Shown here piece by piece: positions 14,621 through 62,900 of a stretch of DNA of 64,000 bases; within the stretch, counting starts at the first letter, position 1; every line of letters begins with the position of its first letter. The notes under the pieces were generated by a model. The model was not told the DNA's origin. It did no database searches and saw only the letters and a program-made list of their open reading frames with translations. Source of the stretch: Paraspadella gotoi (lineage: Eukaryota > Animalia > Chaetognatha); the NCBI GenBank assembly GCA_051294375.1, contig CM119271.1:4969579-5033578 (forward strand), in the 5' to 3' direction. The position numbers and the translations under genes are program-made.

Positions 14621-17277
14621 TCAACACAGTTGGCAAGCCTTGTTGCAATGCGGCAGCATGTACCACGGATTATTTTCGCATTCACCCCTGTCGGCCCACT
14701 CTTGACATCTCTCGTGCTGGTCGCCGCAATTTTCGCAGTAGCCGCAAGCTTTGGGACAATTCGGGATCATGTAGTGACCGTTTTTCTTACATTCGCCGCG
14801 TTTGGCCCATTCGTCGCAACGATCCTTGTGATTCTGACAATTTTTCCCGGCGCCGTCTCCACCATCACCGCCGTCTCCACCATCACCACCGTCTCCTCCA
14901 TCACCACCGTCTCCACCATCACCGCCATCTCCTCCATCACCACCATCCCCGCCATCTCCTCCGTTGCCGCATCCTTTGGGTCCGCATCCGTTGCCGAAGT
15001 CGCCCGTGATCAACAGGTTGCCCAATGCCCTTCTGTTGCTGCTGCAGGTCGAAGATCGCATAGAGCTGCAAAGCAGTTGGATGGGTTAAGATTAATTTTC
15101 TGCTATTCCCTTTCTTTTATTTATTTTTTTAATTTTTCTATTTATTCATTTTAAAATTGAGTGAATTATTAATATTTTTTTTTCAATGATGAAAGCAACA
15201 ATGTGAAGGTTTATTTTGCGAAACTTGGAAATCGTTTACCTAGTGCAAGGCTTCTTGGGACAAGCAGTCGGACAAGTGCATTTACACTTGTGGTTCACGT
15301 AGCAAGGATCTTTGCACTTATCGTTCTTCTCGCAATGCGAGTTACAGTTGTACATAATGTTGACGATTTTCGCGTCCGTGAAATGGAGGGCGGGATTAGA
15401 CCGATGACCGATGCTGCCTTGGTAGTCCTTGTTGATAATACGGTAATAGATAAATAATTATTTGTAAACGATAAGCGTGTAATGGAATCGACATAGATTG
15501 AATATTTGACAATATAATATGACAATGAATATAAGCTACTACGGTGGACTAAAATCCACCAACCATTCATCAGTGGCCATTGGTGCAGGAGGCAAGTCAT
15601 TCGCTTCCCAACCCAAAGGTCCGGGGTTTTAGCCAGGTGGTCGCCTAGCAGTTAAGAGGGATGGGGCTCTTAACCCGCCTGTAACATGGTGTTACACTGT
15701 TACAGCCTTATCCGAAGCTCAGGGACTGCTTATATTGATCGGTTCTGTCACTAACACATAACAATAATTACTGTCTCTTCACTACTTATTTTTGCTTATT
15801 TAGGAATTCACTAATTTACAGTACAGCATTTTTGTTGCTCGTCCATTTAACAGATTTTAAAACTAAATCACACTAGCAACGACCTCACCCATTTACCTTT
15901 CTTAACTTAAGGTCTTTTCCTGACAACAACAACGACAACGTCACTCTTGCCTGATTTCTCGTGATGATTGTGAGGCGACCGTTTGACGAAAACGAGGAGC
16001 CTCCGTAGTGCATGACGGAGCAGTAGTCGTACGGAACGCCGAAGTTGTGCGTGCGGCTCTCGATGCGGAAGTTGTGCCGGTTGCTCCAGCTCACGTTGTC
16101 GAGAAGCACCTTGATGGCGGAGTCGCGGTCCGTGCGGCATTGCTCGTGGTGGAGACCTGGTTGAAATTTCTATCTGACGGAGAGAGTTCTTTAGTTAAAA
16201 AAAACTTAAATCAATATTGCAAAGAAACCGATAGACAGAAGAAAATTAAGAAAAAACAGTTAGATTTCGACGGAATGTCATTAAAATAAAATTTGAGGAG
16301 GTCGTAAAGAAGTAGAGAGCACTAATAGAGAATTGTCTTTAAAATTTTTTAATAAATTTTCAAATTATACATTAAATACGCCTTCTAATAATTTTGTAAT
16401 TGGTCCGAATGCAGTTAACGACTCTACCTATGGTGTGCCCCAATTCATGGGCGGCGATCCCGTGCCAAGTGCAGCCTCCAATCCGCAGCGACACCTCGTG
16501 GTTGCGATGCAGCCAACCGACCATCGAGTAGCAACCACCCTTGTTGACCACGGTGATGTAGTTGCTGTGACCGGTGGAGTGGGCCAAAGGGCTTCCGGCC
16601 GGCGTGAACCGGATGCACGTCTTTTCTTGCCACTCCTTGGGTTTAGGAATTGTTGATAATACTACATTTGAAATTAAAATTTAAATACTGCAAATTATTA
16701 ATAGTATTAATGAGCATTGAACAATACAAATTTACAGCTGCTAATTAATAATTATAAAAACGAGGTTAAAAATTTAATATATACCCCAATTTATTAATAA
16801 AAAAAGCCAATTTCTGTGGTGGATACGTAGTACATACTAAGGTAATATCTTGTAAGAGAGATAGTCTCCCTTATCAAAAAGTTAAGAGGCAGGATAGCTG
16901 GTTCATTAAATAAATTAATATGCTTTTAATAGGTTTGCATGGATCTCAAAACTTTAAACAATTCCGCTTGGATTAATAACAAAGAAGAGAATTTGCTAAA
17001 TTTTCACACCCCATCTGCCGAACCTTCATAGCGCTGTAGATGACCCCAGAGTATCGAGACCCGAAAGCGCTGGAGATCTTGTAGGGAATGATGGCCTTGG
17101 GCCAGCGCCAGTAGGGATCCTTCATTCCGGCGCCGGCGAAAGTAGAGAGGCTGACGTTGCTGTAGGCGACGGCGTATTGCAATGGATCAAGATTCATGTC
17201 CATCTGGAGGTTGATCAGGTTGTTCGAGGACGCAGAGGCGGCCGCACCTTTTTTTTTTTGAAGGGTCGGTTGGGGGA

Positions 17278-21403: not shown

Positions 21404-21734
21404 GAGAGAAGGAGAGGGGAACGAGGCGGGCAGCTGTCAAGAGTCAATATTGCTTCCTCCTGTTCATTCCCTGCCTCATATGAATACAGTAACCACATTG
21501 CCTGGAAGGCGATGGCACAGGCGCCAACAAGATTCCAATAGATCTCTCTCTCTCTCCTTTGCTCAGATATCCATCTCCTCTCATCTCCCGCTCTGAGATT
21601 GCTCATCATCTCGTCATCTCACTCTCCGGGTCTCTATCCAGCCTCCTCTCTTCTACCTCTATCACCCCCTCCCTCTACTTCTCCACCTTCATCTCTCTCC
21701 CGTCTCCGCTGTTCTCATCTCTCTCTCTCATCAT

Positions 21735-33636: not shown

Positions 33637-33698
<62 letters not shown>

Positions 33699-34613
33699 AG
33701 CAAAGCGAAGGAACCTCACTTTTTTTCTTTTCTCAATTTCAGGATAGACGCCTCGTTTTTTTTGCAGGTGAGTCGATGAGAGACTTTTTTTTTCGTGAAA
33801 GGAGTGTGGAGTTAGTGTGGTGAGGGTTGTGGGCGGAATAGTGTAGCCGAGTGGTGAAGATGTGTGTTTTTGAGGAGGGGAAGAGGAGCGGGCCGGATGT
33901 GTGGGCGTCGAAGTCTTTCGACGGATGAGTCTTGATAAATCGAAAAGAAAAAAATAAAAATTCGAGAAAAAGAATAAACAAAGCGTCGACGAGGAAAAGA
34001 TGAAAGAAAAAAAAAGAAAGAAAGAAAGTAGCGTCGAAAAAAAAAAAAAAAAATGGAGCAGCAATAATGCGAGGGTGAACGCCGTAAAAAAGTGATAAAA
34101 AGCATCTATAAAGGGTTTGAAAGATAGACAGACAGAGCAGAATCAATGTTTTTTTGGATTGAAAGAAAATCATTATCATGTCACCTCCATTCGAATCGAA
34201 TATGATATAAATATATTTATATGTATATATGGATATTGTGTAATAAACAATAATATAAATGAATATAAAAAAGTTGTGTAAGTTTTTTANNNNNNNNNNN
34301 NNNNNNNNNNNNNNNNNNNNNNNNNNNNNNNNNNNNNNNNNNNNNNNNNNNNNNNNNNNNNNNNNNNNNNNNNNNNNNNNNNNNNNNNNTTAACATTTAA
34401 GGTATTTAAAGCAAGATTGTGATTTGCATTATATATACATAAATAACGATTTAATTTGATCGTTTTATCACCGGTACCTTTTACTTCTCAAACGAATAAA
34501 TAAACGGATCAAAAAGACAGACCGGCAGATTTATCGACGCTACACTATCTAATAGAGTTCGAGCCGCAGCCTTGGCTAAAAAAGCCTGCGGAGATTTACG
34601 CGTCTTTGCGAGC

Positions 34614-34655
<42 letters not shown>

Positions 34656-40600: not shown

Positions 40601-43600
40601 NNNNNNNNNNNNNNNNNNNNNNNNNNNNNNNNNNNNNNNNNNNNNNNNNNNNNNNNNNNNNNNNNNNNNNNNNNNNNNNNNNNNNNNNNNNNNNNNNNNN
40701 NNNNNNNNNNNNNNNNNNNNNNNNNNNNNNNNNNNNNNNNNNNNNNNNNNNNNNNNNNNNNNNNNNNNNNNNNNNNNNNNNNNNNNNNNNGACATTTCGT
40801 TACACTGCACTGAAACCCGTCGAAAAACGAAATGGCGGCCGAAGATGACCGAGGGGAGTCGCGCGGTGAATTTAAACAAAAGACAAACGTCACAGACATT
40901 ATGGAAATTAGTTGTCTAGGGAAATTTTCTGACTTTCAAACATAATTTGGCGATCGTGAATATATTGTTCGACGCTAAGCAAGGAATATTTTTGCATCAA
41001 TCGACTGCTTCTTAATTAAAAGTTATTCTTAGTTGTACATTAGTACATAAGTACTCGTACTAATACTCGAAACGAAAACGAAGCGAAGAAAGTGACGCGA
41101 CTCATTTGCATAGAAAAAAAAGAAAAACGTTAGGGAGAAAAAAGTAAGTATTTCCGGATGAGTAAAGAGAAGAGTAACAAAAAAAAGAAAAGAAAAAAGC
41201 AAAAAAAAAAACCCAAAAAAAAGCAGAATTTGTCTCGTTATCGCGCTCGCGTCTCGGGTGTCAGCCTGTCAGTCTGTCTTCTCCATTGACTTTTTTTTCT
41301 GTCAACTCGCTTGTCTATCTTTCACTAGATCCGTGTTCCCGTTAGTCTGTCTTCACAAATGTCTGTCTACCCCATTTTACGTATCTTCCCGATTTTGTTT
41401 TCTCGATTATCCGTTTTCCCGTTAGTCTTTCTTTGACTTGTGATTCTTGGAGGTTGTCTGTCTTCTCTATTGTCTATCTTTCCGATCTTCTGTTTGTTTG
41501 TTTTCCCGGTTGTATTTGATCCCGCTCATATGTTTCCGTATGTCTGTCTTTCCGTTCATCCTACGTATGCCTTTGTTTATTATTCCCATTCTTTCACGGA
41601 CTACGATAGGAATTCAAATTTCCATCAACGATCTGTATGTCCGTCCGTCCGTCTTTACGTTTCTCCTTTACTACCGACCGCCTTGGTTTAATTTCCTTCT
41701 TATGTCCCGCAATTTTCTGTTCGTCCGAAAAGTCCGTCTGTCCGTTAAATATTTTCACATTAAAGAAGTAAGTTTGTTTAAACTCTTTGTTTGTCTGTTC
41801 ATATTTCTGTCCGTCTGTATCTCTATCTGTTTGTCTTCCTGTCCGTGNNNNNNNNNNNNNNNNNNNNNNNNNGGAAAGAGAAGAGATCGCAATTAATTCA
41901 GCTGCTCCATTTTTTTTTTCTTTTTTTCGACGGCTACTTTCTTCTTTTTTTTTTTTTCTTTCAATCTCTATATTCCTTCCGACGCTTTTTGTTTATCTTT
42001 TTCTTCGTATTCTTTATTTTTTTCTTTCGATTTAGTCAAGACTATCTCGCTCCGGAGAAGAACTTTCGAAACGCCCAAATCCGGCCCGCTCCCTCTCCTC
42101 CTCCCTCAACTGCAACACACTCCACTCGGCTACAACTATTCACCGCCCCATCCAACCCTCTCACCACTAAAACTCCCCTTCCTTTCAACGAAAACAAGTC
42201 CTCTTTCATTCGACTCACTGCAAAAAAACACGAGGCGTCCTATCTGCCAAATGAGAAAGCAAAAAAAGTGCCAGGCTCCTCGCTTTGGCTTGTACTCCTT
42301 CTCATCTCTCTCTTCTCTCCTCTCTCTCTTCCTCTCTTCTCTCTCATCTCTCTCTCTCTCTCTCTGCGTCATCTCTTCTGCCTCTCCTCCTACTTCTTTC
42401 TGCGAGTGCGTCGAAATACTGTTTCCTTTTCCGCTCGCAGTAAACAACTAAGCCTCACTTTCTTCTTACCCGACTTCAGCTTTCCCCCATTCGAATTTTC
42501 ATCATTTTTAGTTGCCGTCCGCGAGGACTCGCCGACGAAACTCTATAAGTTCACTTTTCGGTGCGGTCTCTTCTGGTCGGTCCGGTATGTCTGTCTATCG
42601 GTCCTGTCCACTTATATTCAAAATGTAATAGTATCAAAGGTAATAAAAAATGGAATTTTCGACTCAGTGCATGTCATAAATACACGGGCTTAAGAAAGTT
42701 TTTTTAGTCATGGTCATGTTATGTCAATGTCATGATCAATGTGATTAGAGAGAATTACGCTCATAAAAATAAAGTCAGTTGGGCCGGAGCGCAACACTTT
42801 GGAATCCACGTTCTTGTTAGTTGTTTTTTCATCCGCTCATTCCTCTATTCTCTCTCTCTTCTCTCCGCACCGTCCTCCGTATGATTGACCTATTCTCACT
42901 GCACCCCTAATACGACCTCAACCCTCCACCTCAACCTTAACCTTAACCCGTCTCTCCCCGCACATCCCTGACCACTGACCCGACACGTTGGGTCGCACAA
43001 CGAGGATCCACGATTTTGGAGCCTCTCCGGACCGTCTCGTTGGAGGAAAAAAAAGGGCAAAACGAATCGGTCTGTCGTCGCCCAACGTCTTTTTTTTTTC
43101 TCATTGATGGCGCTTACCTTTTTTTCTTTTCTTCTCTTAATCCTTATTTTCTCTTTTATTCTTGATCTTTTTTCCCCCTTTTTTCATTTTGGTCGCTTTG
43201 CTTTTTTTGTCATTTCTTTTTTCCCCCTTCTTTTTTTCTATCTCTTGTCCTTTTCATGTTTTCGTATATTTTGCCTGCATTTTCCACCATTGATTACATT
43301 TTATTTATCTTCCCTTTTTATTTATTTTTAATTGTCATCCCACTCACTTCAATCTTCTTCCTATTCTTACTCTCTCTCCCTCCCTCCCTCTCTCCTCTCT
43401 CGTCCTCTCTCTCTCTCATTCTCTCTCTCCCATTCTCTTGCCTCTCCCTACGTGCAAGTTTCCCAAACCTTCTGCCCCCTTCCAATCTTCACCTCCCATC
43501 TTCGCCGACTTGTTCGGGGTCCCGCGCGCGGGCATCCTAAATTGGCAAGTCTGCTCGTTGGCGCTTGGAAATGAGGATTTGATTGCGCGTTCTAACGGGA

Positions 43601-44790
43601 CCTTAAATGCCTTTCGTGCGCCGCGGAATAGGAAGTCGCCAAAGTTGAGGAGAGGAAAGCGCGGACGCGACGCGGATGGCACGGACAGAACCACGACTAG
43701 GTCGCGGGTAGGTGAGAATAGTTAAACTGACGGACTCGCAAATAAGAAACGTGACAAATCCGAAAGAGCTAAGTGACAGAAACTGTATTACAAACAACCG
43801 ATATTAGCCCGTGTATTTATGACATGCACTGAGTCGAAATTCCATTTTTTATTCCTTATATATACATTTTTAATATAAGTGGGACAGACCGATAGACAGA
43901 CATACCGACCGACAGAGAGACCGACCGAAAAGTGNNNNNNNNNNNNNNNNNNNNNNNNNNNNNNNNNNNNNNNNNNNNNNNNNNNNNNNNNNNNNNNNNN
44001 NNNNNNNNNNNNNNNNNNNNNNNNNNNNNNNNNNNNNNNNNNNNNNNNNNNNNNNNNNNNNNNNNNNNNNNNNNNNNNNNNNNNNNNNNNNNNNNNNNNN
44101 NNNNNNNNNNNNNNNNNNNNNNNNNNNNNNNNNNNNNNNNNNNNNNNNNNNNNNNNNNNNAGAGAGAGAGAGAGAGAGAGAGAGAGTACAAGCAAAGCGA
44201 AGGAACCTCACTTTTTTTCTTTCTCATTTCAGGATAGGACGCCTCGTTTTTTTGCAGGTGAGTCGATGAAGAGACTTTTTTTTTCGTGAAAGGAGTGTGG
44301 AGTTAGTGTGGTGAGGGTTGTGGGCGGGAATAGTGTAGCCGAGTGGAGTGTGTGGAGGAGGGGGAGAGGAGCGGGCCGGATGTGTGGGCGTCGAAGTCTT
44401 TCCGACGAGATGAGTCTTGACTAAATCGAAAAGAAAAAAATAAAAATACGAAGAAAAAGAATAAACAAAAAGCGTCGACGAGGAAAAAGATGAAAAGAAA
44501 AAAAAAAGAAAGAAAGAAAGTAGCGTCGAAAAAAAAGAAAAAAAAATGGAGCAGCTAATAATGCGAGGGTGAACGCCGTAAAAAAGTGATAAAAAGCATC
44601 TATAAAAGAGGTTTGAAAGATAGACAGACAAGAGCAGAATCAATGTTTTTTTTGAATTGAAAGAAAATCATTATCATGTCACCTCCAGTTACGAATCGAA
44701 TAGATATAATATATATTTATATGTATATAATGGATATTGTGTAATAAAACAAATAATATAAATGAATATAAAAAAGTTGTGTAAGTTTTT
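28135..44790. repeat. Multi-copy direct and inverted re-occurrence of the ~28.1-34.3 kb segment (probable haplotype/gap-fill redundancy)
   Basis: Approximate matches: 30155-33330 to 34390-37527; 28135-29010 to 37538-38372; 29430-30050 to 39020-39625; 31190-32335 to 40791-41847; 32350-34065 inverted to 41885-43800; 33375-34289 to 43805-44790. Copies differ mostly by small indels and abut N gaps. Confidence 0.85.
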
Positions 44791-45449
44791 TGCTTCGGCA
44801 GAAAAATTATTATGAATAAAAACACAAGAATAGCTTTGTAGTTTTTGTTTCAACGTCATTTTAAAATGTTGTTTAATGTTAATATTTTCAAAATGAAGTA
44901 ATACAGTGCTGAAGACAAAACATTATGTTTAGTATTTATTATTTAACGTAGCGAAAGAGATGAAGCCGGTTCACAGAGATAATTATCCTAGAGCAGAAGA
45001 GATACAACCACTAAGGCGAATAGGGGGAGAGGAGAAAAAGGGAAAAACCAGAATTACGAACGCTAATCATTCAACCTGGTTTTTTTTTTATCGTTTTACA
45101 GGGGAGTACAACTACCGATAGAGAGAGAGGAAACCCAGAATTACGAAGCTAATCATCAACCTGTATTTCGTGGTGCTTTTCTTAATTAAAAATTAGGAAA
45201 AAATTTTATCGGTTTAACTTCATTAGGTCATGGGCTAGTGGGTGGCTCTCATCTCGTGCTCTCTATATATCTCTCTCTCTCTCTCTCTCTCTCTTCTCTT
45301 TTCTCTCTCTCTCTCTTTCTCTCTCTCTCCGTTCGCTTGTCAGACGGTCAAACGTTTACCGGGAATGGGCACGCAATATATATTAAACATTTTCGTTAAA
45401 TACTTTATATAATGGTGGGGAGAGNNNNNNNNNNNNNNNNNNNNNNNNN

Positions 45450-46880: not shown

Positions 46881-47617
46881 TGTGGCAGCAAGACTTAAAA
46901 GCTGCCTCACTGCTGTCCGTCCTCAGCCTCGTCTCAATGCTGAGCAGGCTTAAATCATCTCATTCCATCCGTGCGTCCCGGGTTCAATCCTGGGTATCCC
47001 GGTTTCTGCTTAAATGGTACGGATGCCGTATAAAACGCCCAGTGACAGGAGGCGGTCATGAGGTCCGCAGCCCCTACGCCAGTTGGTGAGATACTCGCGC
47101 CCGGTATCAACAGGCTATCTCCGTTGCCATAATGTGGTGAGCCTACACTCTCGAACACGCCAACCGCTGCCGCACCTGTGCGCCCCCACGCCATTACGTC
47201 GTTAGGGTATGCCATATGACGCCTATGCCTACTTCTGGTAACGCCTCCAGACTCGGCTCCTCGCTCGGCCCGCTCGCTCCTCACTATGGCAATGAGATCA
47301 AAACCTTCTCTCAGACATCTCCTCAGGATTGAGCCCCTGTGGGAGAAGTCTGGTGGGGGCATCCTCTGGCAGCAAGACTTAAGCTGCCTCATGCCTGTCC
47401 GGTCCTCAGCCTCGTCTCAATGGCTGAGCAGGCCAAATCATCTCATTCCATCCGGCCGTCCCGGGTCAATCCCGGTATCCCGCGTCTTGGCTAAATGTAC
47501 GGTGCCGGTATAAACATGCAGTGACAGGAGGCGGTCACTGAGGCGCCCCGCAGCCCCTACGCCAGTTGTGAGATACCTCGCGCCCCGGGTTATCACAGGC
47601 CATCCTCCGTTGCCGTA
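46881..47617 (+). mobile_element. Non-autonomous miniature LTR retroelement (TRIM-like), subfamily A
   Basis: Direct repeats 46881-47131 and ~47365-47617 with TGTGGC...GCCATA-type inverted termini. PBS-like TGGTGAGCC at 47135, just after LTR1. Purine-rich gggagaag...ggtggggg just before LTR2. Internal region of ~235 bp with no recognisable coding content. TSD not clean. Confidence 0.75.
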
Positions 47618-47947: not shown

Positions 47948-50900
47948 ATGGATTACAAGAATCTCGGCGAAGAAGATTTAGAGTTGATCGCTGAAGGGAA
48001 AACTAAGAAAATATTCTCCATCAAAAACGGATCGAAAAAAGTAAGTCTTTCCGGGGGTAAGTGCAGTGTTTGTGGAGCGGTGCTAATTTTTGGGACTTTT
48101 TGAAGATTCATGACAAGTCGTGAATGAGGAGATTAATCATAATCTGCTTTTAAGTTAAAATTTGTTAAAGATTTAAAACAAATTTTTGTTTTGTTTTACA
48201 GCTAAAATTTAAAGCAATTTTAAGCGGCTTAGATCCATGACAAACTCGTGGCGATTCTGGAGTTGAATCAGTTCTGGAGGCTTATGAAAAAATGAAGCAG
48301 ATGAAAAAAAAATTTAGTTTTTTTTACGGAAAAGCAAAATTAGGACCGTTACAGTAATGATCTTAAATATGCTGAATTTGTCAGATAAGATTAGTTTTTA
48401 TAATTTTTATTAAATTTTTTTAATATTATTATATTTTATTAAAAATTGTTATTATAATTTTATTATTTTTCTAAATTTTATTTATATTATTGAGTGATTT
48501 CTTTCGTTTTATTGTTTGCTAATAATAATTTATTGAGAAAAACTTGTTTTATTTTCCGATAATCCTCCAGAACGTATTCAACTCCAGGAAAGCTATCTCG
48601 AAGCCATTTTGTTTATCCATTTCAATTTCTTCGTCTGCGCCCCCTTTTCTCTCTCTCTCTCTCTCAGCCCGGCGGCGACGTCTTGGTTCGCTCCAAAGAT
48701 AGAATCACCGCAGGCAATAATCAAAAGAGCGACGTCCTCGAGGGAAAGTCCGCCATTTCGAACGAAACCACCGCCAGGATCTTCGAGTTTTTGAAAGAAT
48801 ACGGAGGTGCGAGGGGAGCAGATTGGGGGGGGGTTGAGACTCGGAGATGGAGGGAGGAGAGAGATGGGGGACTAAGAAAGTTGGGAAGAAGAAATATATA
48901 TTTTATTCGGGGTCAAACGGTTTTTTTAAAAACTTTGGAGGTAAGTTGGAGCAAGAAAAGCTTTACTTGGAGCAAATGGGGAATGTTTAAGAGTGCAATG
49001 GCTAAAGGAGATGAAATAGGAAGCGAATGCAGTTATCAATGCCAGGTGAAAAGTTAAGTTTGTAGGGATTCGTGACTTGGAGAAAAAACTGAAAGAAAGA
49101 ACGAGAGATGTCAGAGGAAAGCTAAAGAATTTGTTAGTATTGGATGAAAAAGTGAGTAGGAGAAAAAGAGAGAACGGGATCGAGAGAGAAAAGTAAACAA
49201 AGGCTAAAGAAAAAAAGAGAAAGTCTCGCCGCGGGAAACTCACGTCCAAATTCCTGGCGGTAAACACCCACGCGAGAGACCAACTACGGCGAGATTGAGA
49301 GCAAGAGAGTAGGATAGCGAGTGGGAGTTATCGAGTTGATAGCAAAATTGCGTTGTGAGATTATTCTTGTATAAAAAAGGAGCTTGACTTTATAATCCGG
49401 TGAAGTAAAAGTCGTGTTATATAAATTGAAATATAATATTCGAAAATAATAATCGTTTGTAATAAAACATTTCAATAATTTAATGTTTCAAAAAAAAAAA
49501 AAAATTGGGAAAAAAACTTTATTTTTAAGTTTTTAAGTTAAAATAAAAACATAATTATAAACATCGACGTTTCCTCTCTCCCCTTATCCGGTTTTCTTCA
49601 ATCGATTGTCAGGCATTTCGACACATTTCATCTCTCGTTATGATTCAACTTCCTTCGTGGCCAAGAAATGTTCCATGATTCCCATCGAATGGGTGACGCG
49701 TCGCTTGGCAACCGGATCTTTCCTCAAGGTAAAGTTGGCTTGGATAAACGTTTTTGCCCTTTTATCGACAGGACGTTGAGAAAATTGAGTAAAATGAAAG
49801 GAAAAATTTTCGGTTTTACTCCCGTTTCAGATTTTTTGAAAGCAATAAATTTAAAAATATAAAATAATTGCACGTATGACAAAAAAAAAAAAAAAACCTT
49901 CCGTCGCCATACCATTTAAATTTCTCACATTACTTACATTGTATTTTTAACAATCCCGTTTCCAGCGCAACCCCGGCGTGCCCGAAGGTTACACGTTCGC
50001 TCCTCCCAAGCTCGAGATATTTTTCAAGGACGACGACAACAACGACCCTCAGTGGTCGCTCGAACAACTCGAGGTATTTCTCTTGACATTTTTAATGGCG
50101 TTATCTTTCTTCTCTTTTCCTCTCCTTGCGTACAAATAAAGCTCAACCGCATTTCTCTCTGTGATACTGTTTTTCCTGAAAAAATTTTGCCGACTTGACG
50201 AACTTAAACGTTTGACTCCGTATATAAGTTACCCCTCTGTCCTGTGCCATCTACCCCTTTCAACTAATTAAAATACCATATTCTCTCATAGGGCTATTCT
50301 AATTATTTCCTCAGTGATCTGTCATTTATTTTACCGATTCGTGGGAAAACTAATCTTAATTTAGGTGTCCGCCTGTCACTTCACGTTTCGCGCCTTCATC
50401 GTCTTCACTTTTAACCTTCCCTTAGCACCACACAAAAATAACAGAAATCACTGAGGCGAGGCTTCATTGAGTTATCTACTCTCATGCTGTCGTTTTTAAG
50501 GAATGAGATGTCTCTTCTCATTATGGAGACACAAAAAAAAATTACAAGCCAAACACGTAGTGGAAAAAGGCATCTCCTTGGGCGAGGAATGCAAACTCAT
50601 TTTACCCTCAATTGCAAAATAATGAAGATATTGGATGACATTCACAGACGACCAATATAAAAATTAATCACATCCAACAGCGTACATGATTAAGAACATT
50701 ACGAGCGATCTTGCGTCCCGTCACCTGTCTGGCACGAGGCTTTGTGGTTTAAGGCCTGCCCATTTCGTACTCTCTCACGAAGATTAATTACATGAGTCAG
50801 GTCCCTCTGTTCGTGCAAGCCTTTCAATCAAGACTACTCTCACAGTCCCGGGTAATTAATTATTTTCAACGTCCGGCGCAGATGGGAGTACGCTCATAGG

Positions 50901-53900
50901 GTGGGGTGGCTTTCCCACTGATCCAGAGTGAAGTAAGTAGAAGATAGTCATCCCATTCAAGATATGTTTCAATTGTATGAAAAAGGACGCACTCCCTTAA
51001 GTATTAGAATCGGGGAATACTTATTGTAACTCCGCACTACGCATCAAAATAACAGAGGAGGTCTGACTATCTTTAAATGAAATTTGGTACAACCATAATT
51101 ATACACATTCATATCTCATTCAATTTCATATGTATAAATAAATATCTTGCCCCTTTGAGCTGTGTGACAGGCTGTTGGTGGATTTAAGACTCCAGATAAA
51201 TATCTCCTTAAACTTTAATTTGTAAATATTAATATAATATTCCCCCCTTGCCCACCCATGCATGGCTTTGCGGGCGTCAGCATAGAGCACGCTTGTCTCC
51301 CATTGGCCGAACATCCAGAAATACGAATCGAAATGATGTCAGCGAGACGATGACGTCATTCTTACGCCGTCGACGAATCCGAATATCATACTTCATGTTC
51401 GACGAGGTGTGACGTCGATCTACGCCCAGCGCCTCTTTCCAGGATCGTATCTGAAGAATGTGCGGACTGTGTCGACAAAAAGCTAGAGTGAACAAATCAA
51501 GGTCGCAACTTGTGGCGCTGTGACCTGAAACGGTAAGTGCGCTAGTCTCCTCGAAATATGTTTGCCACTGCCTTCACTAGGAGTTAGGTGTTAACGAGCA
51601 GGAAATGGAATGGGTAGGATATTCAGGGTAAGGATTAAAAAGGAGGACAATATGAAAACATTAATTTTAACGAAATTTACTAACAATGAACACGCCTACA
51701 GCTCTTGACTAACCGCACTCTACTCCTCCCCTCTATAAGGTCCAAACTTTTTGCCATCAGGCTTTGTTAAAAAGCGTGCGGGAGAATACTCGCAGGATTT
51801 TTCTTCGGTGAGCATTATGGTAGTGGTACCAGGTACAGAAAACCACCAATCAAAGCCTTATCTATCAACCCGGAACATAATGAAGTACTCAAACAATAAA
51901 GCTGCCTCGTCATAAACATTGGGGACTAAAATCCACAACCGTTCATCCAAGCGGACCCCTTAAGGTCTAGCACGGAGGCCTGAATGTGTTTTCATTTACG
52001 CCATTCAATAACACCAAAGGGATCCGCGGGTTCTCATGCCGGAGTGGAACACTGCCGGTTGGGCAGGTTTAATGTTTGGAGTAGGGGAACGCCCAGGTCG
52101 CTCCAGCAACTTCAGACGTTGGTTATCTCTCTTCGGTGTCCCGTTAACATAGCCTGAAATTCCGAGACGGCTCAAGGGACTTGGGACAAATGTATTATTT
52201 GATCTACGTTCTTGCGGTTCCCCTGTCACTCAGAGTCACATACACAATAAAAATCCTCCTTTTCGCCTCAACACCTTACACGTATACATTAAGTGACTGC
52301 ACGGCTTCTTCGGATGTCGGGCGGCGCGGCTCACTTTTCCATCGTGGGCCACTTTCTCTCACTTTCCTATCATGAAGCCCGACCAGCAAACTTCTCTACC
52401 AATTTACGATCACAAAATGTTGCTTCTCGCGTTCCTTTTCCACCACCCCCCCCCCACTATGAAAGCCATAGTAAGGTGGACAGCAGCAAATATTCAAATC
52501 ACCCGCATATGCCCGTCGGGCCCTACCCCTATCTTCCTCGTACCACTACAAGCCATGAAGCCATAGTAAGGTGGAGAACAGACACGCAAAATATGTTCAT
52601 ACTTATGCGCGAACTTACAGCTTAAGGCGGAATTCCCTTGACACACCTCAAGAGACATTTGGTGACCCTGTTAACCACGAGCACACTATGAAGCACTATA
52701 TGTAAGGTGGACAGCACGCACACATATTCTCAATGTACAGCACCTTGTCCAGGCTACCTCGTCACATAGAACAACTGACCGTTGTAACAAATCAATACTT
52801 ACGCTTCGGAGAGCGCGATAGTGTACCGATGCGTGGAGCAGGCAGGACAGATATTCGCTACTGTACTCCCACGTACCTCGCTACGCGCCCCTCTACTGTC
52901 GTGGATTGTAAGGCGTACCACGAGAGCTAAGTAGACAAGGCCGATAAGTAACGGGTGGAACAGCAGGAAAATTTCAGACAGCCCCCTGGCGCGGACCTAG
53001 GGTAGGAAAGGAACACCGTTTTGTCGTTTCCTAGCGAGACCACGTCTGTAGCGATCTTGATGATAGCGTTCGTACTGAGTATAAGGTTGCGACTTGAGAA
53101 ACGCAGAAAATTTATACCAGCCTCGCTCAAAACCTTAACAAGTGGTTGTTTTCTCTTCATCCAAGGCTTTGGTAGAAGTAAGTGCGATTGTATTATACCA
53201 CTACTTTTTTTAGTATTGGGTTTTTCTTGTAAACTAATAAGAAAAAAGCACATAACGTGACCCGTCATGAGTTAGTTGGGTTCGCAAGCTAGTCACAGAA
53301 AATTTCAAAATATCAAGCCTCAGAATCTTATGCGTTTGTATACACTCTTTTGTTTCTCTGTAACCACCTACTATTGTCTAGTTAGAACGCGACATTTAGG
53401 CGTAAGGGTGAAGGGAGCACGCGAGCAAGAATTCCGCGCTATTATTGTTTCTTTCTATATGCTATTTTATAATGGAGCTTAGAGATCCATACTGTCGTAC
53501 TAGCACACATAAGGCGTCTCACGCAACAGAGCGACTCGCACATAATGTTTGTTTTGAATTTTATCGTATTAGCAAAAGCTTTATCCTTGACATTGTGTTT
53601 TGAATGAGAAAGTATGTGCAGTATATCAGGCATCATTTTTGCTTTGAAGTATCATTCAATTCTAATTAAATGGTTTTAATGTTTGACTTGCATATCTAAT
53701 ATAAATATTTCATTCTCTATATGATGTAAGTTTCCAAAATATTTTTTTTATTTTTCATTTCTTAAGTAATATATAATGACACAAGTATGAACTACATAAT
53801 CCTTAGATATATTTATATAAATACTCAAAAAGGTTTTTATAATGGGCAAAATACAGTCAGAAGAATAATTTTTATTTACAAACGTGTAAAATTTATTAAG

Positions 53901-56900
53901 AAGGATAATTACAAAAAAAATATAAGACATGACGAATGAGAAAAGAAAATCAGTAAGCCAGGCGATTTTTATATTAACGTTTAACGAAATCAAAGATGAG
54001 ATGTAATTTCTCGTTACGAACCTAAACTAAGTAATAAATTGGTGTCTCGTACGTTCTGTTTTTTATTGATCATGGTCGATTTTCTAAAAAATGATTAGTA
54101 TTTCAAGGGAAACTGAACGACAGGGATTTATTTATTTAAAACTAGAAAAACGTAACAACATAAGGAGATATGTTTGTCTCTGATGGAAGAGCCCTTCTTT
54201 CAGCGCGAAAAAATATTGTTTTGTTTTAAAAAATAGTTTTTCATCAGAATTGCAAGAGAGAGAAGAGAAGAGAGAGAGAATGAGCAGAAGAGGGAAGTAG
54301 ATAATTTTCAACAAAGAATTTATTTCACTAAAATCTTTACTTATCTATCTCTCTGAATTAAACCTATATTGTCACTAAAATCTTACTTAATCTATCCCTC
54401 TGAATTAAACTTTATATTTCAAATTTCATTCATGTCAATTTTTCAAATTTCAAATATTAATTTATTGCAATGAGAACAGTAATTTATTGATAAGTGTTAG
54501 ACAGAACGTCAATATAAGCAGTCCTGAGCTTCGGATCAGGAGGTAACACCATGTTACAGCGGATTAAGCGCCCCGTCCCTCTTAACTGCAGACGACCACG
54601 GGCTAGAACCCCGGACCTTAGGGTTTGGGAGGCGAATGACTTGCCTCGGCACCAATGGCTGCTGATGAACGTTGGTGGTTTTTAGTCCACTATACAGATT
54701 TTGGTGTATTAGACAGTACAAATCAAGTTGTATTAATTTTTATCTTTTTGTACAATGTCCATAATGTAATTAAGTTTATTCCTCTCTCCTCTCTCTCTCT
54801 CTCTCTTCTCAACCTTCACCAAATTTCATTTTTTTCACGCACTTATTCTATCTAGATCAACTAAATCTTGTCCCTCTAACTGACCACTTATCTCTCTCAA
54901 TTCTTTTGTGGACAACTTTACCTTTTCTATCTCTCTCTCTCTCTCTTTCTTTAACTCACAAATTGTCCATTCATTTCACAACAGTCAAAAAGCGCTGATG
55001 GAACTCGAAAATCTTTGAGTCGAAACATGTCTGCAACCTTATATAATAATAAAATTGTTGTAACATCTCTCTATCGATATTGATATCGATATTGATTTCG
55101 GTGAGCTTCTTGTGAGTTAGTGTCCGACGTCGTCGGCGGCGGCGTCACGCATTTTTATAATAAACTACTACGCTTTATTAGTTTTGGCTGGACTTAACCG
55201 TTTTTTTTAAAATAAAACTATTATAATTACAATGAATGTTTATAGAAACTGTGCTATCATAGTAGCTTAAAATATTAGATATGGCTTCTCATCATGAAAT
55301 AGCTCTGAAATTTCATATTCTTTGGATTCAAGTATGTTTTTTGTTTGAAATTTCCACTTCATTATGATTTACACTGTGCAATATTGCAATTTAGATTATA
55401 GTACTGCATTATATATCCCAAATTAGTAATATAAATTGCATAATCTAATTTAATATTGCAGTAAGTCACATATTGAGATGAAATTCAAAAAATTTTAATC
55501 TATAATAAAAATGGAAATCAATGAAGCCTTATATTAATTTTAATACAATAACACAATAAATTTTTTTACAGCTATGATTGGAAAAAATTGTAAAACAATG
55601 TGTAAGCATTTTTTTTCCTTTACTTTTTATTTCTTTAATTAATATAAATTTTCTTCTTAATTTTTTGTAGATTGCTGCCTTTTTAAACCCTTTAAAAACA
55701 AGTTCAGCGCATCGCATGACTGATTACAGCGCGCTGCTTCCACGCATCTCTGTTCTGTTGTCTTTCTCATTTCTCTCTCTCTCTCTCTCTGTAGTCTCTT
55801 GCGAGATGTTTTTTTACAAATTTTGATTATTTTTTTCCTTTTAAAACTTTTAATTATCGCCATTTTTACCGCGATTTTTTTCTCAATGCAAAATCCCAAA
55901 TTTACATCCGAGATTTTCTTGTTTATGTCACTTTCTTTCTCTCTTCTCTTTCAATCTCTTCTCTTCTAGCTCTCGGTTCTCTCTCTTTCACTCATACACG
56001 CGATTTGGGCTTGTTTATATTTATGTATGATTGATTGGCATTGAGTCAATGAATGACTATCATCGCATTCAATGTAAGTGACTATACATCTTACATAAAA
56101 TGATTATCATCACATCAATGAATGACTATATTGCAATCCCCTTTTGGTTATATCACAATCAATCATTTTGGTACTGCATAAAGGATCGATTATTTGGTTA
56201 TCATCGCATCAATTATTGGTTATCATCGCATCAATATTCCGGCTTATCATCGCTCAATCCTGTTAGGTGTCATGCCGGCACCAATATTTGGTTATCTTGT
56301 GAAGAGGATGACTTCGATGTAAATCGTGCTATTTGATTAAGGTATTCCTTTTGTTCTCGCTCTCTCTCCTCCTCTCTCGTGTCTCTCTTTCTCGCTCTTA
56401 TGGAGAGCAACATTGAGTGCTTTTCTGCTCCAGAGTGCTTGATAGTTATCCGAAATCGGATTCTTACCGTCCGTGGCATGAGCTCTTCTCAATCTCTCGT
56501 TTTTTTTTTTTTTTTTCGAGATCTCTCTGCCTCAGATTCTCTCTCTTCTCGACTTCTCTCTTCTTTTCTCTCATGCTCGTCTTTCTTTTATTTTATTTTG
56601 TTCAAAGGTGTGCGTAGGCTGCTCTCTTATCTTTCTCCTATTGAGGCTGCGTCTCTTTCTGTCTCTCTCTCGGTCATCGCGATTTTCTCTCTCTCTTCTC
56701 TTCGTCTAGTCACGATCATCGCAATCGTATGACTTGATGTCTATTTACTCATTCGTCTTCATTCTCTAAACTGTATTTTTTATCTTTTTGGTTCAAGTGA
56801 TCTCTCTCTCTATTAAACGATCGCCTCCGCAAACTCAGTATATATATATAATCCGGATTACGAAACTAGAGATATTAGCTTGCAGTTCATTTCTAACAAA

Positions 56901-59900
56901 AACGGCAAAAAGAACCCGCACGTGGCTCGACAGCCACGCCTTGAATTGCCTCTTTGAAGTTAAATTTTGACTGATCCGCTAATATCCACACGACAACTTA
57001 AAGCATGAACTTAAGCGAAAAATTCTGGAGGCTCATTTCATTTCTAAATCATACTTTGCCCAACCTTAATGCCACTGGTATTGCAACTTTCATTCTACAA
57101 ATTAATAAAAGAATAATATGTCAACAGAAACTTTAGCGAAAGAGTGTTGATTGATTATTAATATTAGTTTTTTGAATAAAATTGATTATTTTCTTCGATG
57201 GTTATAATTGATTGTGTAACTCCAAACAAGTAAATCAAAAATTCAATTTATGCATCGCAAAGATGCAGTGAGAAATAAATAATTCCGTACTAAGGACAAA
57301 AAACGAAATAACGTTTAAGAATAGAGAATGGCATAGGAGTGTAAAGACAAGATATTTGTCAAAAAATCAATAGAATTGCTAAATCGTGAGTGGACATGTT
57401 TTTCCAACGGTGTGGATTGACTGTGCCCCCCGCCAATCCTTCGCTCGGCCAGCCCAAAAAGAGCGAAAAAGGTTTTCATCCGAGGTTTAAAGCCGAGATT
57501 TTCCGGGCAAGAATCGTTTAACGAGAGACGTAAAAACCCGGAAATCCCCGGCGCGACGCCGATTGCCGCCGGAAACGCCCGGTAAAAAAAAAAATGGCCG
57601 GAAATCGGTGGAGGCGCGGCCGCGAGGAGGATCGATTTCGTGACCGCGAGGGAGGGGGGGCGGGGGTGTAATACCGTGCGGGAAGTCAAATCAGTGGAGC
57701 GCCGAGTCAATTGGGGTTATCGCCGCGTGGCGTTGTGGGCTTTGCGGATATGATTTTTCTGTATCAGTTGGAAAAAAAAAAAACAAAAGAGAAAAAGAAA
57801 CGGGGGCAAAGGAGAAAATCTCGCGATCAAGCGAGGAAGCAATCAAGCAAGCGAGCAAGCAAGCGACCTGACGAGCTGCTTCCCGCACTGAAGACGCGCG
57901 GNNNNNNNNNNNNNNNNNNNNNNNNNCCCCTTCAAGGTAAACTTTTTGCATCAGTTTTTAAAAACGGCGGGAGAAATGAGATTTTTCTTTACATTCTGGA
58001 GGAAGTACGAACCCAATCACCTTCTATAGGACGAATGACTCAACAAAAAAGCGCCTCATATGGTGGACTAAATCCCCAACCGTTCATCAGCGGCCATTGG
58101 TGCAGGAGGCAAGTCATTCGCCTTCCAACCAAAGGTCCGGGTTCTATGCCGGTGGTCGCCTTGCAGTTAAGGAGGGACGGGTCGCTCAACCCGCCTGTAA
58201 CCCGGCGTTACAGCCTGATCCGAAGCTCAGGGACTGCTTATATTGACCGGTTCTGTCACTAACTCATAACAATTAATACCGTCTCTTCACTCACTTCATT
58301 AAGGACCCGCCCCGCCCCTTCTCCCTTTTTCACCCAACTTCCTCTCCCAATGAACGCTTTCGATCAAACCCCCCCGTCTTTCCCCCCCCCCGCCAATCCT
58401 TCGCTCGGCCAGCCCAAAAAGAGCGAAAAAGGTTTTCATCCGAGGTTAAAGCCGAGATTTTCCGGGCAAGAATCGTTTTACGAGAGACGTAAAAACCCGG
58501 AAATCCCCGGCGCGACGCCGATTGCCGCCGGAAACGCCCGGTAAAAAAAAAAATGGCCGGAAATCGGTGGAGGGCGGGCGCGAGGAGGATCGATTTCGTG
58601 ACCGCGAGGGAGGGGGGGCGGGGGGTGTAATACCGTGCGGGAAGTCAAATCAGTGGAGCGCCGAGTCAATTGGGGTTATCGCCGCGTGGCGTTGTGGGCT
58701 TTTGCGGATATGATTTTCTCGTATCAGTTGGAAAAAAAAAAACAAAAGAGAAAAAGAAACGGGGGCAAAGGAGAAAATCTCGCGATCAAGCGAGGAACAA
58801 TCAAGCAAGCGAGCAAGCAAGCGACCTTGACGAGCTGCTTCCCGCACTGAAGACGCGCGGCCTCGAGTTGTTCGAGCGACCACTGAGGGTCGTTGTTGTC
58901 GTCGTCCTTGAAAAATATCTCGAGCTTGGGAGGAGCGAACGTGTAACCTTCGGGCACGCCGGGGTTGCGCTGGAAACGGGATTGTTAAAAATACAATGTA
59001 AGTAATGTGAGAAATTTAAATGGTATGGCGACGGAGGTTTTCTTTTTTTTTTTGTCATACGTGCAATTATTTTATATTTTTAAATTTATTGCTTCAAAAA
59101 ATCTGAAACGGGAGTAAAACCGAAAATTTTCCCTTTCATTTTACTCATTTTCTCAACGTCCTGTCGATAAAAGGGCAAAAACGTTTATCCAAGCCAACTT
59201 TACTTGAGAAAGATCCGGTTGCCAAGCGAGCGTCAGCCCATTCGATGGAATCATGGAACATTTCTGGCCACGAAGGAAGTTGAATCATAACGAGAGATGA
59301 AATGTGTCGAAATGCCTGACAATCTGATTGAAAGAAACCGGATAAGGGGAGAGAGGAAACGTCGATGTTATAATTATGTTTTTTATTTAATTTAAACTTA
59401 AAAATAAAGTTTTTTTCCCAATTTTTTTTTTTTTTGAAAGCATTAAATTATTGAAATGTTTTATTACAAACGATTATTATTTCGAATATTATATTTCAAT
59501 TTATATAACACGACTTTTACTTCACCGGATTACTAAAGTTCAAGTGTGGCGTATATTTCACACCCGCCTCACCTCCACCATCCGTCAAGCCAAATCCATT
59601 GGTCAGAGGGGGAACACACCATCAGGCGTAGTGTTCCATCCACAGTCCTAACGACTTCTCCTCTGCGCTGTTGGCAAAGCGCGAGACCGTCCTAGGGGTA
59701 ACCGCGCCATGACCTGGAGGCTGTCACTGAGTGTCGGAAAGCCCCCAAAGCCAACAGTGAGATCCCCCATCCAATGGGCATCACAGGCAACTCCCCACGG
59801 GCTGTTGCCATAAGTGGTGAGCCCCTACTATCGAACACGCACCTTCTCAGGGTTACGCTCTACGACAAACGCCTATGCCCTGCCGATCTTCGGGTTACGC

Positions 59901-62900
59901 TACGACCAAACGCAAATAATGCCCCTGGGCGTACGCTACCGACCAAACGCCTATGCCCCCACAGACTTCTGCGCTCTCTCTTCTCTCCCACTATGGTAAC
60001 AGTCTTTCAGACACCTCTCAGGATTGAGGAACCTGCACTAGTGATGTCTTGGCCCGGGGATCCTTTTGTGGCGGTAGTATTCACCACCGCCTCACGGTCC
60101 TACCATCCGTCAGCAAATCCATTGGCTCAGAGGGGGCAACACACCATCCAGGCGTAGTGTTTCCATCCACAGTCACTAAACGACTTCCCTCCTCGTTTGG
60201 CAAAGCGAGACCCGTCTTAGGGTAACGCTTGCCAGTTGACTGGAGGCGTCCCACGAGCGGTCCGGAAAGCCCCCCCAAAAGCCAACAGTGAGATGCCCCA
60301 TCCCAATGGGCATCACAGTGCAACCGGCTGTTGCCATACAAGCTCCTTTTTTATACAAGAATAATCTCACAACGCACAATTTTGCTATCAACTCGATAAC
60401 TCCCACTCGCTATCCTACTCTCTTGCTCTCATCATCTCGCCGTAGTATTGGTTCTCTCGCGTGGTGTTTACCGCCAGAATTTGGACGTGAGTTTTCTCCC
60501 GCGGCAGAGACTTTCTCTTTTTTTCTTAGCCTTTGTTTAACTTTTCTCTCTCGATCCGTTCTTCTCTTTTTCTCCTACTCACTTTTTCATCCAATTACTA
60601 ACAAATTCTTTAGTTTCCTCTGACATCTCTCGTTCTTTCTTTCAGTTTTTCTCCAAGTTACGCAATCCCTACCAAACTTAAACTTTCACCTGCATTGATA
60701 ACTGCATTTGCTTCCCTATTTCATCTACTTGTAGCCATTGCATCTTTAAGAACAATTCCCCATTTTGCTCCAAGTAAAGCTTTTCTTCTCCAACCTTTAC
60801 CTCCAAAATTTTTAAAAAAACCGTTTGACCCCGAATAAAATATATATTTCTTTTTCCCAACTTCTGTATCCCCCATTCTCTCCTCCCTTACATCTCCGGA
60901 GTCTTCAACCCCTCCCCCCAATCTGCTCCCCTCGCACCTCCGTAATTCTTTCAAAAACTCGAATCCTGCCCGAGGTTTTCATCTCTCTCGTTTAGAGTCG
61001 GTTGTCGATTAGCGTCATTTAAATTTCATTAGTTTTTTCAGTTTTTCTTACCCTGAATATTACAAGATTCCTGCCAATTCCCCCCCCCTTCTTAACACCT
61101 AACTCCTGTTGGCAACTTACCAAACTAACGCCACTTACCTTCAGCCGCGCCACGTGGACCTTATGTCCCGCGTGACCGTCGCCATCTTCGAAATCCTGGA
61201 AAGAGCGTGGGCGCGATGCGACGTCACCCTCGTCGACATGAAGATCGAATTCGGATTCGTCGACGGCGAAGATGACGTCATCGTCCTCGCTGACGTCATC
61301 GATTCCGATTCGTGGAGAATCTGGCCAATGGGAGACAAGCGTCTCATGAAGGACAAGCAGGTGGGCAAGGGGGGAATATTTATTAAATTACTTTAAGGGA
61401 AATTTCTAGTTAAATACAAATAAAGTTGTTAAGCTTTCCTACGATTTCTTGTAATTTTTTTTGGTGTCTCATGAAGCTAATTTTAAAACGACTGGATAAA
61501 ATATCTGAATCAGTGATTCTTTTTTTTTTTCTAAGTGTGACGATGAATGCCGTGAGACATTTTTGTGTACACCTAAATTAAGATTGTCACGAATCGGTAA
61601 AATAAATGATGCTTGGGTCTTTGAGGTAGGCAACAGTAAATAGTCAACGTTGTCGTCGTCGGCGAAAAAGTATCACAGAGAAATGGCGCGGACCAAGGTC
61701 GAATAAAATGTCGAGAAAAAAAAACTTACTACAATTTCTCTTCATTTCTCTCTCTTTCTCTCTCTGGCTTCTGTCCTCGTGATTTTCTTAGCGAAATGAT
61801 TAATGAGGAACTCGGCTCTTTCGCCGAGATAAGGCAGCGGCGTTTAAGGCTCTCATTTTCCCTTTCAGAAAAAAAAAAGGACGGGGACTTAATTGAACCG
61901 ATCAAACGTTTATTCGAAAAAACCGAGGGGAGGGATGGAGAGGGAGTGGAGAGAGAGAGAGAAAGAGAGTTTGTGTGTGTGTGTGTGTCGGAGCGGAGAG
62001 TGGCAATGAGATGAAAAAGAGATTAATAGAGAGAGGAAGAAAGAATGGAACGAACTGAGATCCGAAGCGAATTAATTCATGAATGATCTCGCTATGATCT
62101 CGCGATTGTTGTGTAATTAAACGCCATCTGGCGATATGAACTCTTTTAAAGCTTGGCCAACTGCAGATTATATTTGAAACGAAATTTAGGAAAGTAAAAA
62201 AAATCATTTGACCTAAAAATCAAAATAAAATAACGTTTAAAATAAAGATCAACTACCGGATTTTGGAAAGGGGGGAAAAAGAATGGGGTTGAGAGCAAGA
62301 AGAAGGGGAGTTAAAAAGTGAGAGTGAGAGAGACAACGCAGTATAGAAAAAAAAAGAGAGAGAGAGAGAGCGAGTGACTCCAGGAATATAAGGGGTAGAA
62401 CCTCACCAGTCTCTCGATGACGCGACTCACCGTCTCGGACCATAAATCTTTTTCTCGCCCGCAGTTTGTCATGAGAAAGTTTACGCCTCGTTGATTTATG
62501 CGCAATTCTGAGAGTAGTACACGCGCGGCGCGCGCAGGCGGGCAAAACATTTGCGCCGGCGCGCGGAACTGCGAATTCGCGTAGCGTGCGTCGTGCGTAG
62601 CGCGCGGTGCACATCGGGGGTTCAAAGTGGTTTGAGAGTCATTGCGGTGAATGACTGACCATAGGTGACTGTTGCGGCAGGTTGTTTCGTATGATCATGA
62701 CTGACTTTGATACCCCGCCTTCTCCCTCTACCCCCCCTCTCCCTCTACCACCCCTACTCCTTTACCCCCCTTCTCCCTCTACCCCCTCTCCTTCTCCCCT
62801 TCCCCCCTCTACCCCCCTTTCTCCCCTACCCCTCTACCCCCCTTTCTCCTCTACCCCCTTTTCCTCCCTCTAAACCCCCGCTCGTTCCAAACGCCAAGGT

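Follow-up and report, generated by a model that had tools for sequence, protein, structure and literature searches.

A repeat with a twister-like motif

We analysed a stretch of 64,000 nucleotides from contig CM119271.1 of Paraspadella gotoi (positions 4,969,579 to 5,033,578 of the forward strand, hereafter the window), in which three copies of a dispersed repeat, E58, E15 and E54, each carry a motif resembling the self-cleaving twister ribozyme. To judge from its sequence, the motif very probably derives from a P5-permuted twister, and the repeat that carries it is likely a solo long terminal repeat (LTR). An earlier note on this DNA had placed the three motifs and given the order of their parts, both of which are borne out in all three copies. 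It had also described the host as a dispersed repeat; the repeat is real, but its tRNA-like head, its 4-bp duplication and its relatives with two LTRs had been missed. The features of the three copies are as follows.

58059..58289 (+): 231-bp copy E58 of the repeat, a probable solo LTR; TA...CA ends, contig ends pile up at both limits
58055..58058 (+): left 4-bp target-site duplication of E58; identical right copy at 58290-58293
58059..58089 (+): 31-nt leader, putatively U3-like, kept in all copies 5' of the tRNA-like head
58090..58159 (+): 70-nt tRNA-like head; 7-bp acceptor-like stem, A-box-like motif at 58098-58109, B-box-like motif at 58140-58150
58163..58237 (+): P5-permuted twister-like motif of E58, predicted cut at 58187/58188; recognised by motif pattern, Rfam consensus and structural descriptor
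58238..58289 (+): 52-nt 3' part, putatively U5-like, free of a T run or simple-repeat tail
15540..15781 (+): 242-bp copy E15, flanked by identical 4-bp target duplicates at 15536-39 (left) and 15782-85 (right)
15648-15729 (+): twister-like motif of E15, inside the repeat copy
54471..54694 (-): repeat copy E54, 224 bp, with many single-base gaps; target duplication unrecognisable
54518-54589 (-): twister-like motif of E54, inside the repeat copy

The homology among the E copies extends well beyond the ribozyme. Contigs of seven public runs were mapped on two copies (6817, 4755, 98 and 514 contigs; 10144, 1660, 2331 and 768 contigs), their summed depth not being taken as copy number. Their match to the repeat breaks off at 58059 and 58289. 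Contigs that reach beyond the 3' end into mixed AT-rich flanks number 107, 97, 9 and 28 and, in the second set, 196, 82, 122 and 39, so that a single run holds about 200 separate junctions or more. The 5' end behaves similarly, with the drop-off on the E15 copy at 15543, behind a change private to E15. In every run that lists them, the two ends are sharp and the flanking sequences mixed (agreement 0.41-0.52). It is at these ends, set independently by the contigs, that exact 4-bp duplications flank two of the three copies, E58 and E15; identity of the flanking 4-mers is expected by chance with a probability of 0.0062, and in two of three copies with one of about 1e-4. The repeat has neither a tail nor terminal inverted repeats.

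The boxes of the head resemble the usual A-box and B-box patterns. Their core letters agree with those in passages of PMC10886601. Neither ARAGORN nor Rfam recognises the head as a tRNA, and Rfam found no tRNA in the window, in the E58 region or in element T2, a neighbour introduced below.

The anatomy of the repeat bears on two other readings of its origin. On the one hand, E might be a short interspersed element (SINE) derived from a tRNA, with a twister in its body, mobilised by a long interspersed element in the manner of the hammerhead-bearing SINE of Schistosoma. A tRNA-like head followed by a ribozyme, a length of 231 bp, abundant single copies and the hammerhead precedent (passages of PMC6765202) agree with this, as does the lack of any observed E copy with two LTRs. 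We nevertheless consider a SINE unlikely: 31 fixed bases precede the tRNA-like head, the tailless 3' end is sharp to the base, 4-bp duplications flank two of three copies, no tandem E copies occur in the 64-kb window, and related two-LTR elements lie nearby. On the other hand, E could be a non-autonomous derivative of a DNA transposon in which the tRNA-like and twister-like parts are chance passengers. The sharp ends and short duplication would suit such an element, as would the large number of copies with internal deletions, in part bridged by filler letters (28 and 52 joints; runs X1, X2, X6, X7 and X9), but the lack of terminal inverted repeats and the likeness to two-LTR elements make it highly improbable.

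Some contigs and fragments of the family deserve separate mention. One contig has the start of an element within a second copy (58121 to 58078). At 51887-51954 there is a remnant of the 5' part of the element, degraded and still joined to its flank. Long contigs of 1262 nt (depth 296, run X6), 2226 nt (depth 46, X9) and 1890 nt (depth 71, X3) run 1.1-2.1 kb beyond an E end at several-fold the depth of the other listed pieces; these could represent either the interior of a larger LTR element or repeats of the host.

The motif compared with known twisters

In E58, the P5 stem pairs 58163-67 with 58233-37, and a single additional G follows the P5 linker. The bulged P2 helix (one bulge, 2-3 bp) joins the 58174-75 side to 58190-92 and is followed on its 5' strand by the catalytic G (58176), the neighbouring A (58177) and the first strand of pseudoknot T1 (58178-80 with 58220-22). 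P1 has shrunk to a 6-nt linker, a loop of 4 nt with a single wobble pair at best, next to the predicted scissile bond at 58187/58188 (15671/15672 in E15), whose AA occupies 58188-89. The GC at 58193-94 would form pseudoknot T2 with 58225-26, and the motif is completed by a P3 of 7 bp (58195-201/58207-13) and a P4 of 5 bp (58214-18/58227-31) closed by an A-U pair. Against the Rfam consensus, the core bases (the general base G and the A, NAA at the cut, GC, and the U-NNN-AAGC loop) are intact in all three copies. Pseudoknot T2 is complementary, and pseudoknot T1 is Watson-Crick in two of three copies, with one wobble in E15. The P3 stem, said to be kept throughout, is kept in two copies; in E54 two of its seven pairs are broken.

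These parts follow the type-P5 twister (RF02684; type P1 is RF03160) in the order P2-GA-T1-linker-NAA-P2-GC-P3-P4-L4, and the general base G, the general acid A and both pseudoknots of that class are present in the E copies; in P3 and in the linker ahead of P2, the motif is similar to the consensus line of twister-P1. Unlike type P5, the E motif has the reduced P1, the short and bulged P2 and the A-U closing pair of P4, deviations that the earlier note had named and that are real, together with a closed P5 stem and a score under any Rfam report threshold. According to passages of PMC5408937, P1 is dispensable for twister cleavage. An assay of 1948 natural type-P1 twisters, as described in parts of PMC11662667, found imperfections in P1, P2 and P4, G-U wobbles in the pseudoknots and any base at position -1 to be tolerated, and short paired regions such as T1 are reported, in a passage of PMC9901934, to be rescued by alternative Watson-Crick pairs.

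Several searches support the assignment. Firstly, a motif pattern derived from the copies gave three matches in the real sequence and none in 100 shuffles. This pattern had no match in viral or metagenome contigs; two matches in prokaryote genomes were stemless and were set aside as chance. Secondly, a structural descriptor built from the Rfam twister consensus, with stem thresholds chosen when the element was already in view, matched two of the three copies, 11 of 12 Rfam-positive controls and one of 40,000 shuffles of the element, and it gave a single match in each of 5 of 100 shuffled windows; E15 was missed because of a mismatch in P4. The Rfam consensus lines were taken from 20 of 36 viral loci fetched with the canonical pattern, of which 12 scored above the Twister-P5 cut-off, three matched twister-P1 below the cut-off and five were unmatched. 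Thirdly, the CGG/CCG pairing of pseudoknot T1 seen in the repeat is a natural one: among 41 distinct viral matches to a pattern with this pair, it occurs in the only two that have full stems (L051:58-115 and L067:58-115), both of them phage Twister-P5 loci above the Rfam cut-off (52.9 and 50.1 bits). The claim of a P5-permuted twister is thus well supported, in ancestry and permutation alike, by the Rfam consensus, the descriptor and the phage T1 pairs. The U in pseudoknot T1 of E15 is a CpG-type transition that produces a wobble, not covariation. Two further viral loci, L028 and L035, hold close tandem twister motifs that allow more than a single reading of their permutation.

We also built two models, R1 from 20 unrelated phage and viral motifs and R2 from the three E copies. 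R1 ranks E58 first in the window (16.9 bits, E=0.012) and E54 second (E=2.6). R2 matched 11 of 34 loci that had the canonical pattern or were confirmed twisters, and none of 30 stemless loci, the displayed alignments resting on P4/L4.

It has to be asked whether the likeness to a twister could be accidental and the true structure a long hairpin. Such a reading can point to the lack of an Rfam match and to a rod-like hairpin, described below, that is the predicted minimum fold. We regard it as very unlikely, since the descriptor matched one in 40,000 shuffles, the same helix order recurs with other letters in elements T1 and T2, and the rod is only modestly more stable than shuffled sequences (z -0.3 to -2.7).

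Two related elements with two LTRs

Two larger elements of the window, T1 and T2, have a pair of LTRs each.

59545..60338 (+): two-LTR element T1, 794 bp; LTRs at 59545-59812 (268 bp) and 60067-60338 (272 bp), exact 4-bp duplication
59668..59757 (+): helices in twister-like order within the 5' LTR of element T1; 8-bp P5, P3 of the same length as in E58
59815..59824 (+): TGG motif of element T1 resembling a primer-binding site (PBS), 2 nt past the 5' LTR
46881..47617 (+): two-LTR element T2, 737 bp; LTRs at 46881-47131 and about 47365-47617 (about 250 bp)
47487..47564 (+): helices in twister-like order within the 3' LTR of element T2; 4-bp P2, 6-bp P3, pseudoknot T1 pair as in E58

The PBS-like TGG motif is common to both elements (47135-47143 in element T2) and lies 2-3 nt behind the 5' LTR. 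Element T2 has a B-box-like motif at 46981 and an A-box-like motif at 47421, and an empty site for element T1 is found near 49386, in the inverted duplicate of the region. Elements T1 and T2 are homologous, both in their LTRs (z 5.8-6.9) and internally (score 337 vs 178±18; 0 of 500 shuffles). The two LTRs of each element differ mainly by insertions and deletions (8 substitutions and 33 gaps in element T1, 13 and 23 in element T2), which suggests sequencing error. A scan for the LTR-PBS junction of the two elements returned 120 metagenome loci, none of them alike by BLAST.

By eye, both elements show the helix order P5-P2-A-T1-linker-UAA-P2-GC-P3-L4-P5 behind a tRNA-like head, in letters different from those of E. 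In element T1 the pseudoknot T1 pair is reversed relative to E58, and its P3 differs from that of E58 by double changes at two of seven pairs; free folding of the 5' LTR region recovers P5 (z -3.0). A relaxed descriptor found exactly three sites in the window, one in each family, namely the 5' LTR of element T1, the 3' LTR of element T2 and E54. It found none in five shuffled windows, and among 3000 shuffles of each LTR it matched 0-3. A profile of the four LTRs of elements T1 and T2 has a single other match in the window, the head of E58 (E=0.02). A cross-family MAFFT alignment of the ribozyme regions lost the helix register, and no pairs were counted from it. What is observed directly is the anatomy of the repeat, where it begins and ends, its 4-bp duplications and the presence of two related elements with paired LTRs.

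A competing fold and the variation within the family

The predicted minimum fold of all three E copies is a rod in which the strand with GA and pseudoknot T1 pairs with the 5' arm of P4, and which pairs sequence flanking both sides of the predicted cut. The earlier note had claimed a competing hairpin for the E15 copy, and it exists. In 14 controls, freeing the core costs 1.6-10.7 kcal/mol (median 3.1; 13 of 14 at or below 6.5), the energy of the pseudoknots being left out of both sides of this comparison. One may speculate that the rod is perhaps the off state of the cut or circular RNA.

Mapped on E15, the family shows 21 variant rows at ≥8%, of which seven fall inside the ribozyme: three in or beside loop L3, two at the partners of pseudoknot T1 and two where E15 alone differs. 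There is no such row on GA, AA, the bases of pseudoknot T2 or the P3 and P5 stems. The copies are nearly uniform, and covariation can therefore not be read from the E family. The minority alleles at the two pseudoknot T1 partners reach 11% and 13% of depth in run X1, and 0.3-1.5% and 1.6-3.2% in runs X6, X7 and X9. We considered them as a compensatory subfamily, but both are of the CpG type and unphased, and E15 carries one of them; they are not used as evidence.

Other features of the window

Around E58, 57426-57901 and 58386-58860 form a 97.5% direct duplicate on either side of a gap of 25 N. A tandem array was rejected as the explanation of this direct repeat at 57.4-58.9 kb, since it flanks an assembly gap, and the duplicate is probably an assembly overlap. 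On the minus strand, about 48765-52300 is an inverted, lower-quality duplicate of about 58.0-61.4 kb, and both the empty site of element T1 and the degraded fragment of E lie in it. Large blocks at 28135-44791 and 21720-23822 are repeated at 76-93% identity between N gaps and represent either a repeat family or uncollapsed haplotypes.

Among the genes, a tankyrase exon at 9424-9735 matches animal tankyrases and confirms an animal host. The tankyrase exons span about 7.4-9.8 kb on the minus strand, and among the matches listed for one of them the closest is P0045 (96%). To judge from their motifs, the exons at 1.4-2.4 kb (-) seem to resemble a JmjC demethylase, those at 14.6-17.4 kb (-) an astacin with ShK-type repeats, and those at 61.1-63.1 kb (+) PAICS.

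Discussion

The features described here suggest, at about even chances, that E is the solo LTR of a Helenus-like miniature retrotransposon that is transcribed by RNA polymerase III (Pol III) and whose unit-length RNA is cut by a twister. According to this proposal, Pol III would initiate transcription at the head of the 5' LTR, which resembles a tRNA, and read through, because the LTR lacks a T run. The twister in each LTR would then cut N^A (58187/58188) and free one LTR plus the internal part as an RNA with 5'-OH and cyclic-phosphate ends. This RNA, whether it stays linear or is closed by ligation, as happens in the LTR retrozymes of plants, would be primed at the PBS, and a Gypsy-type helper would copy and integrate it, producing the 4-bp duplications. 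Recombination between LTRs would leave solo copies, and a solo copy that is transcribed would yield a tRNA-like fragment of about 98 nt. Self-cleavage of the motif in vitro seems somewhat more probable than the pathway as a whole, and the circular intermediate, which we propose by analogy, is a tentative part of it and rather less likely than not.

A number of observations weigh against this proposal. Firstly, it lacks confirmation from the existing models: the Rfam check that had been suggested for the motif reported no twister (RF02684 or RF03160) at E≤10 in the window, in the 281-nt E58 region or in element T2, and a P4 closed by A-U is absent among the Rfam-grade viral P5 twisters (0 of 13 viral loci that match a pattern with this closing pair). 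R1 matches E58 in the wrong register and misses E15 and elements T1 and T2, and R2 misses element T1 and reaches element T2 only at E=8.2. Secondly, freeing the core from the rod costs 9.5, 9.6 and 5.8 kcal/mol in the three copies, and the rod is compatible with P3 and could therefore form first. Thirdly, no E copy with two LTRs was seen, and the two-LTR neighbours deviate at the core in both LTRs: element T1 has an extra A before GA and an extra A in L4, and element T2 lacks the catalytic G and has C for the first A of L4. The relaxed descriptor that finds them is post hoc and misses four of seven LTR-like copies (E58, E15 and the other two LTRs). Furthermore, the 4-mers flanking element T2 do not match, and the purine run of both elements lies 6-7 nt off the 3' LTR, unlike a typical polypurine tract. 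Finally, E is only weakly akin in sequence to elements T1 and T2 (z reaches 2.7 or more in 3 of 12 pairs, each of them with element T2), the E profile finds neither element in the window, and the kinship may reflect only tRNA origin.

The core deviations in both LTRs of elements T1 and T2 suggest that cutting may not be needed here. In passages on the CHiTA data (PMC11662667), an A-to-C change was tolerated and an altered general base lowered cleavage. E might also be the solo LTR of a Helenus-like terminal-repeat retrotransposon in miniature (TRIM) in which the twister is a relic, its fold inherited and perhaps retained for packaging or stability, its cutting lost, and its RNA using ordinary terminal repeats. 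The same deviations, the rod in all three copies and the atypical A-U closing pair agree with a relic, and so does the fact that Helenus and Cassandra move without a ribozyme being reported in the relevant passages of PMC10886601. On the other side stand the full set of core bases in the three E copies and the absence of ≥8% variants from GA, AA, pseudoknot T2, P3 and P5, although a young family would show the same in any case. Plant retrozymes, moreover, are also predicted to adopt folds that block the ribozyme and yet cleave themselves, as parts of PMC4918200 relate. A relic is, in our view, possible but rather improbable.

Returning to a cleaving twister in the LTRs, we would put forward, with considerable reserve, a wider proposal. 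The window may contain at least three families of animal LTR retrozymes, each with a tRNA-type Pol III promoter and a permuted twister in every LTR, that would replicate through ribozyme-cut and probably circular RNAs. The scattered solo LTRs would then be Pol III units making a self-trimmed tRNA-like RNA, and twisters of this kind, including the P1-less form and the core variants, would be missed by the models. Few biological roles have been assigned to the twister, and ribozyme-bearing LTR elements have been described from plants, with hammerheads. If the proposal is true, an animal TRIM transcribed by Pol III and bearing twisters in its LTRs links Helenus to the retrozymes, the P5 permutation gains a eukaryotic job, and searches of the Rfam type miss a whole class of twisters without P1. 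Three families with differing core states in one genome would also form a natural series on whether LTR-type mobility needs cleavage, and on the way in which a ribozyme becomes inactive in the RNA it has produced. Among the titles and opening lines of abstracts that we searched, with most subscription journals and Repbase outside the scope, no paper on a twister in an LTR was found.

The closest known systems each share part of this anatomy. Like the Helenus TRIMs and TRIMp3 (Kojima 2024; passages of PMC10886601), the elements described here have tRNA-like A and B boxes within a short LTR, and E probably occurs as solo LTRs. The 4-bp duplications of animal Helenus elements are found here at two of three E copies and at element T1, not at E54 or element T2, and the total lengths of elements T1 and T2 (737-794 bp) lie within the range given there. 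The same passages report no ribozyme for Helenus, the word standing in that paper once, within the title of a reference, and they give its termini as TG...CA, whereas E has TA...CA and element T1 TG...TA. A term search of the Helenus consensus file (PMC10886601) returned no twister core and no shared PBS, although line breaks in that file can hide matches.

With the plant LTR retrozymes (Cervera 2016; parts of PMC4918200), the elements share a PBS or, in elements T1 and T2, a motif like one, a non-coding middle, a 4-bp duplication, solo LTRs (probable in the case of E) and a ribozyme in each LTR, which is self-cleaving in the plants and here a predicted twister, in both cases with a predicted blocking fold. 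The plant ribozyme is a type III hammerhead, and those parts describe no tRNA-like promoter; in the E region no hammerhead core is present on either strand. Circular RNA has been shown for the plant elements and is a tentative prediction for E. Metazoan retrozymes are described, in passages of PMC7761336, as having no LTR, PBS or polypurine tract. The hammerhead SINE of Schistosoma likewise combines tRNA-like Pol III features with a ribozyme, but it is a non-LTR element with a hammerhead and tandem arrays. The twister variants of Perere-3 (parts of PMC8501958) are also twisters with a reduced P1 in an animal retroelement; they differ in belonging to a non-LTR element and to type P1 and in lying at the 5' end, with the duplication beside the cut, whereas the predicted cut of E58 lies 129 nt inside. 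On present evidence the element matches the full definition of neither Helenus nor a retrozyme: in its build it resembles the former, and in its proposed mode of action the latter.

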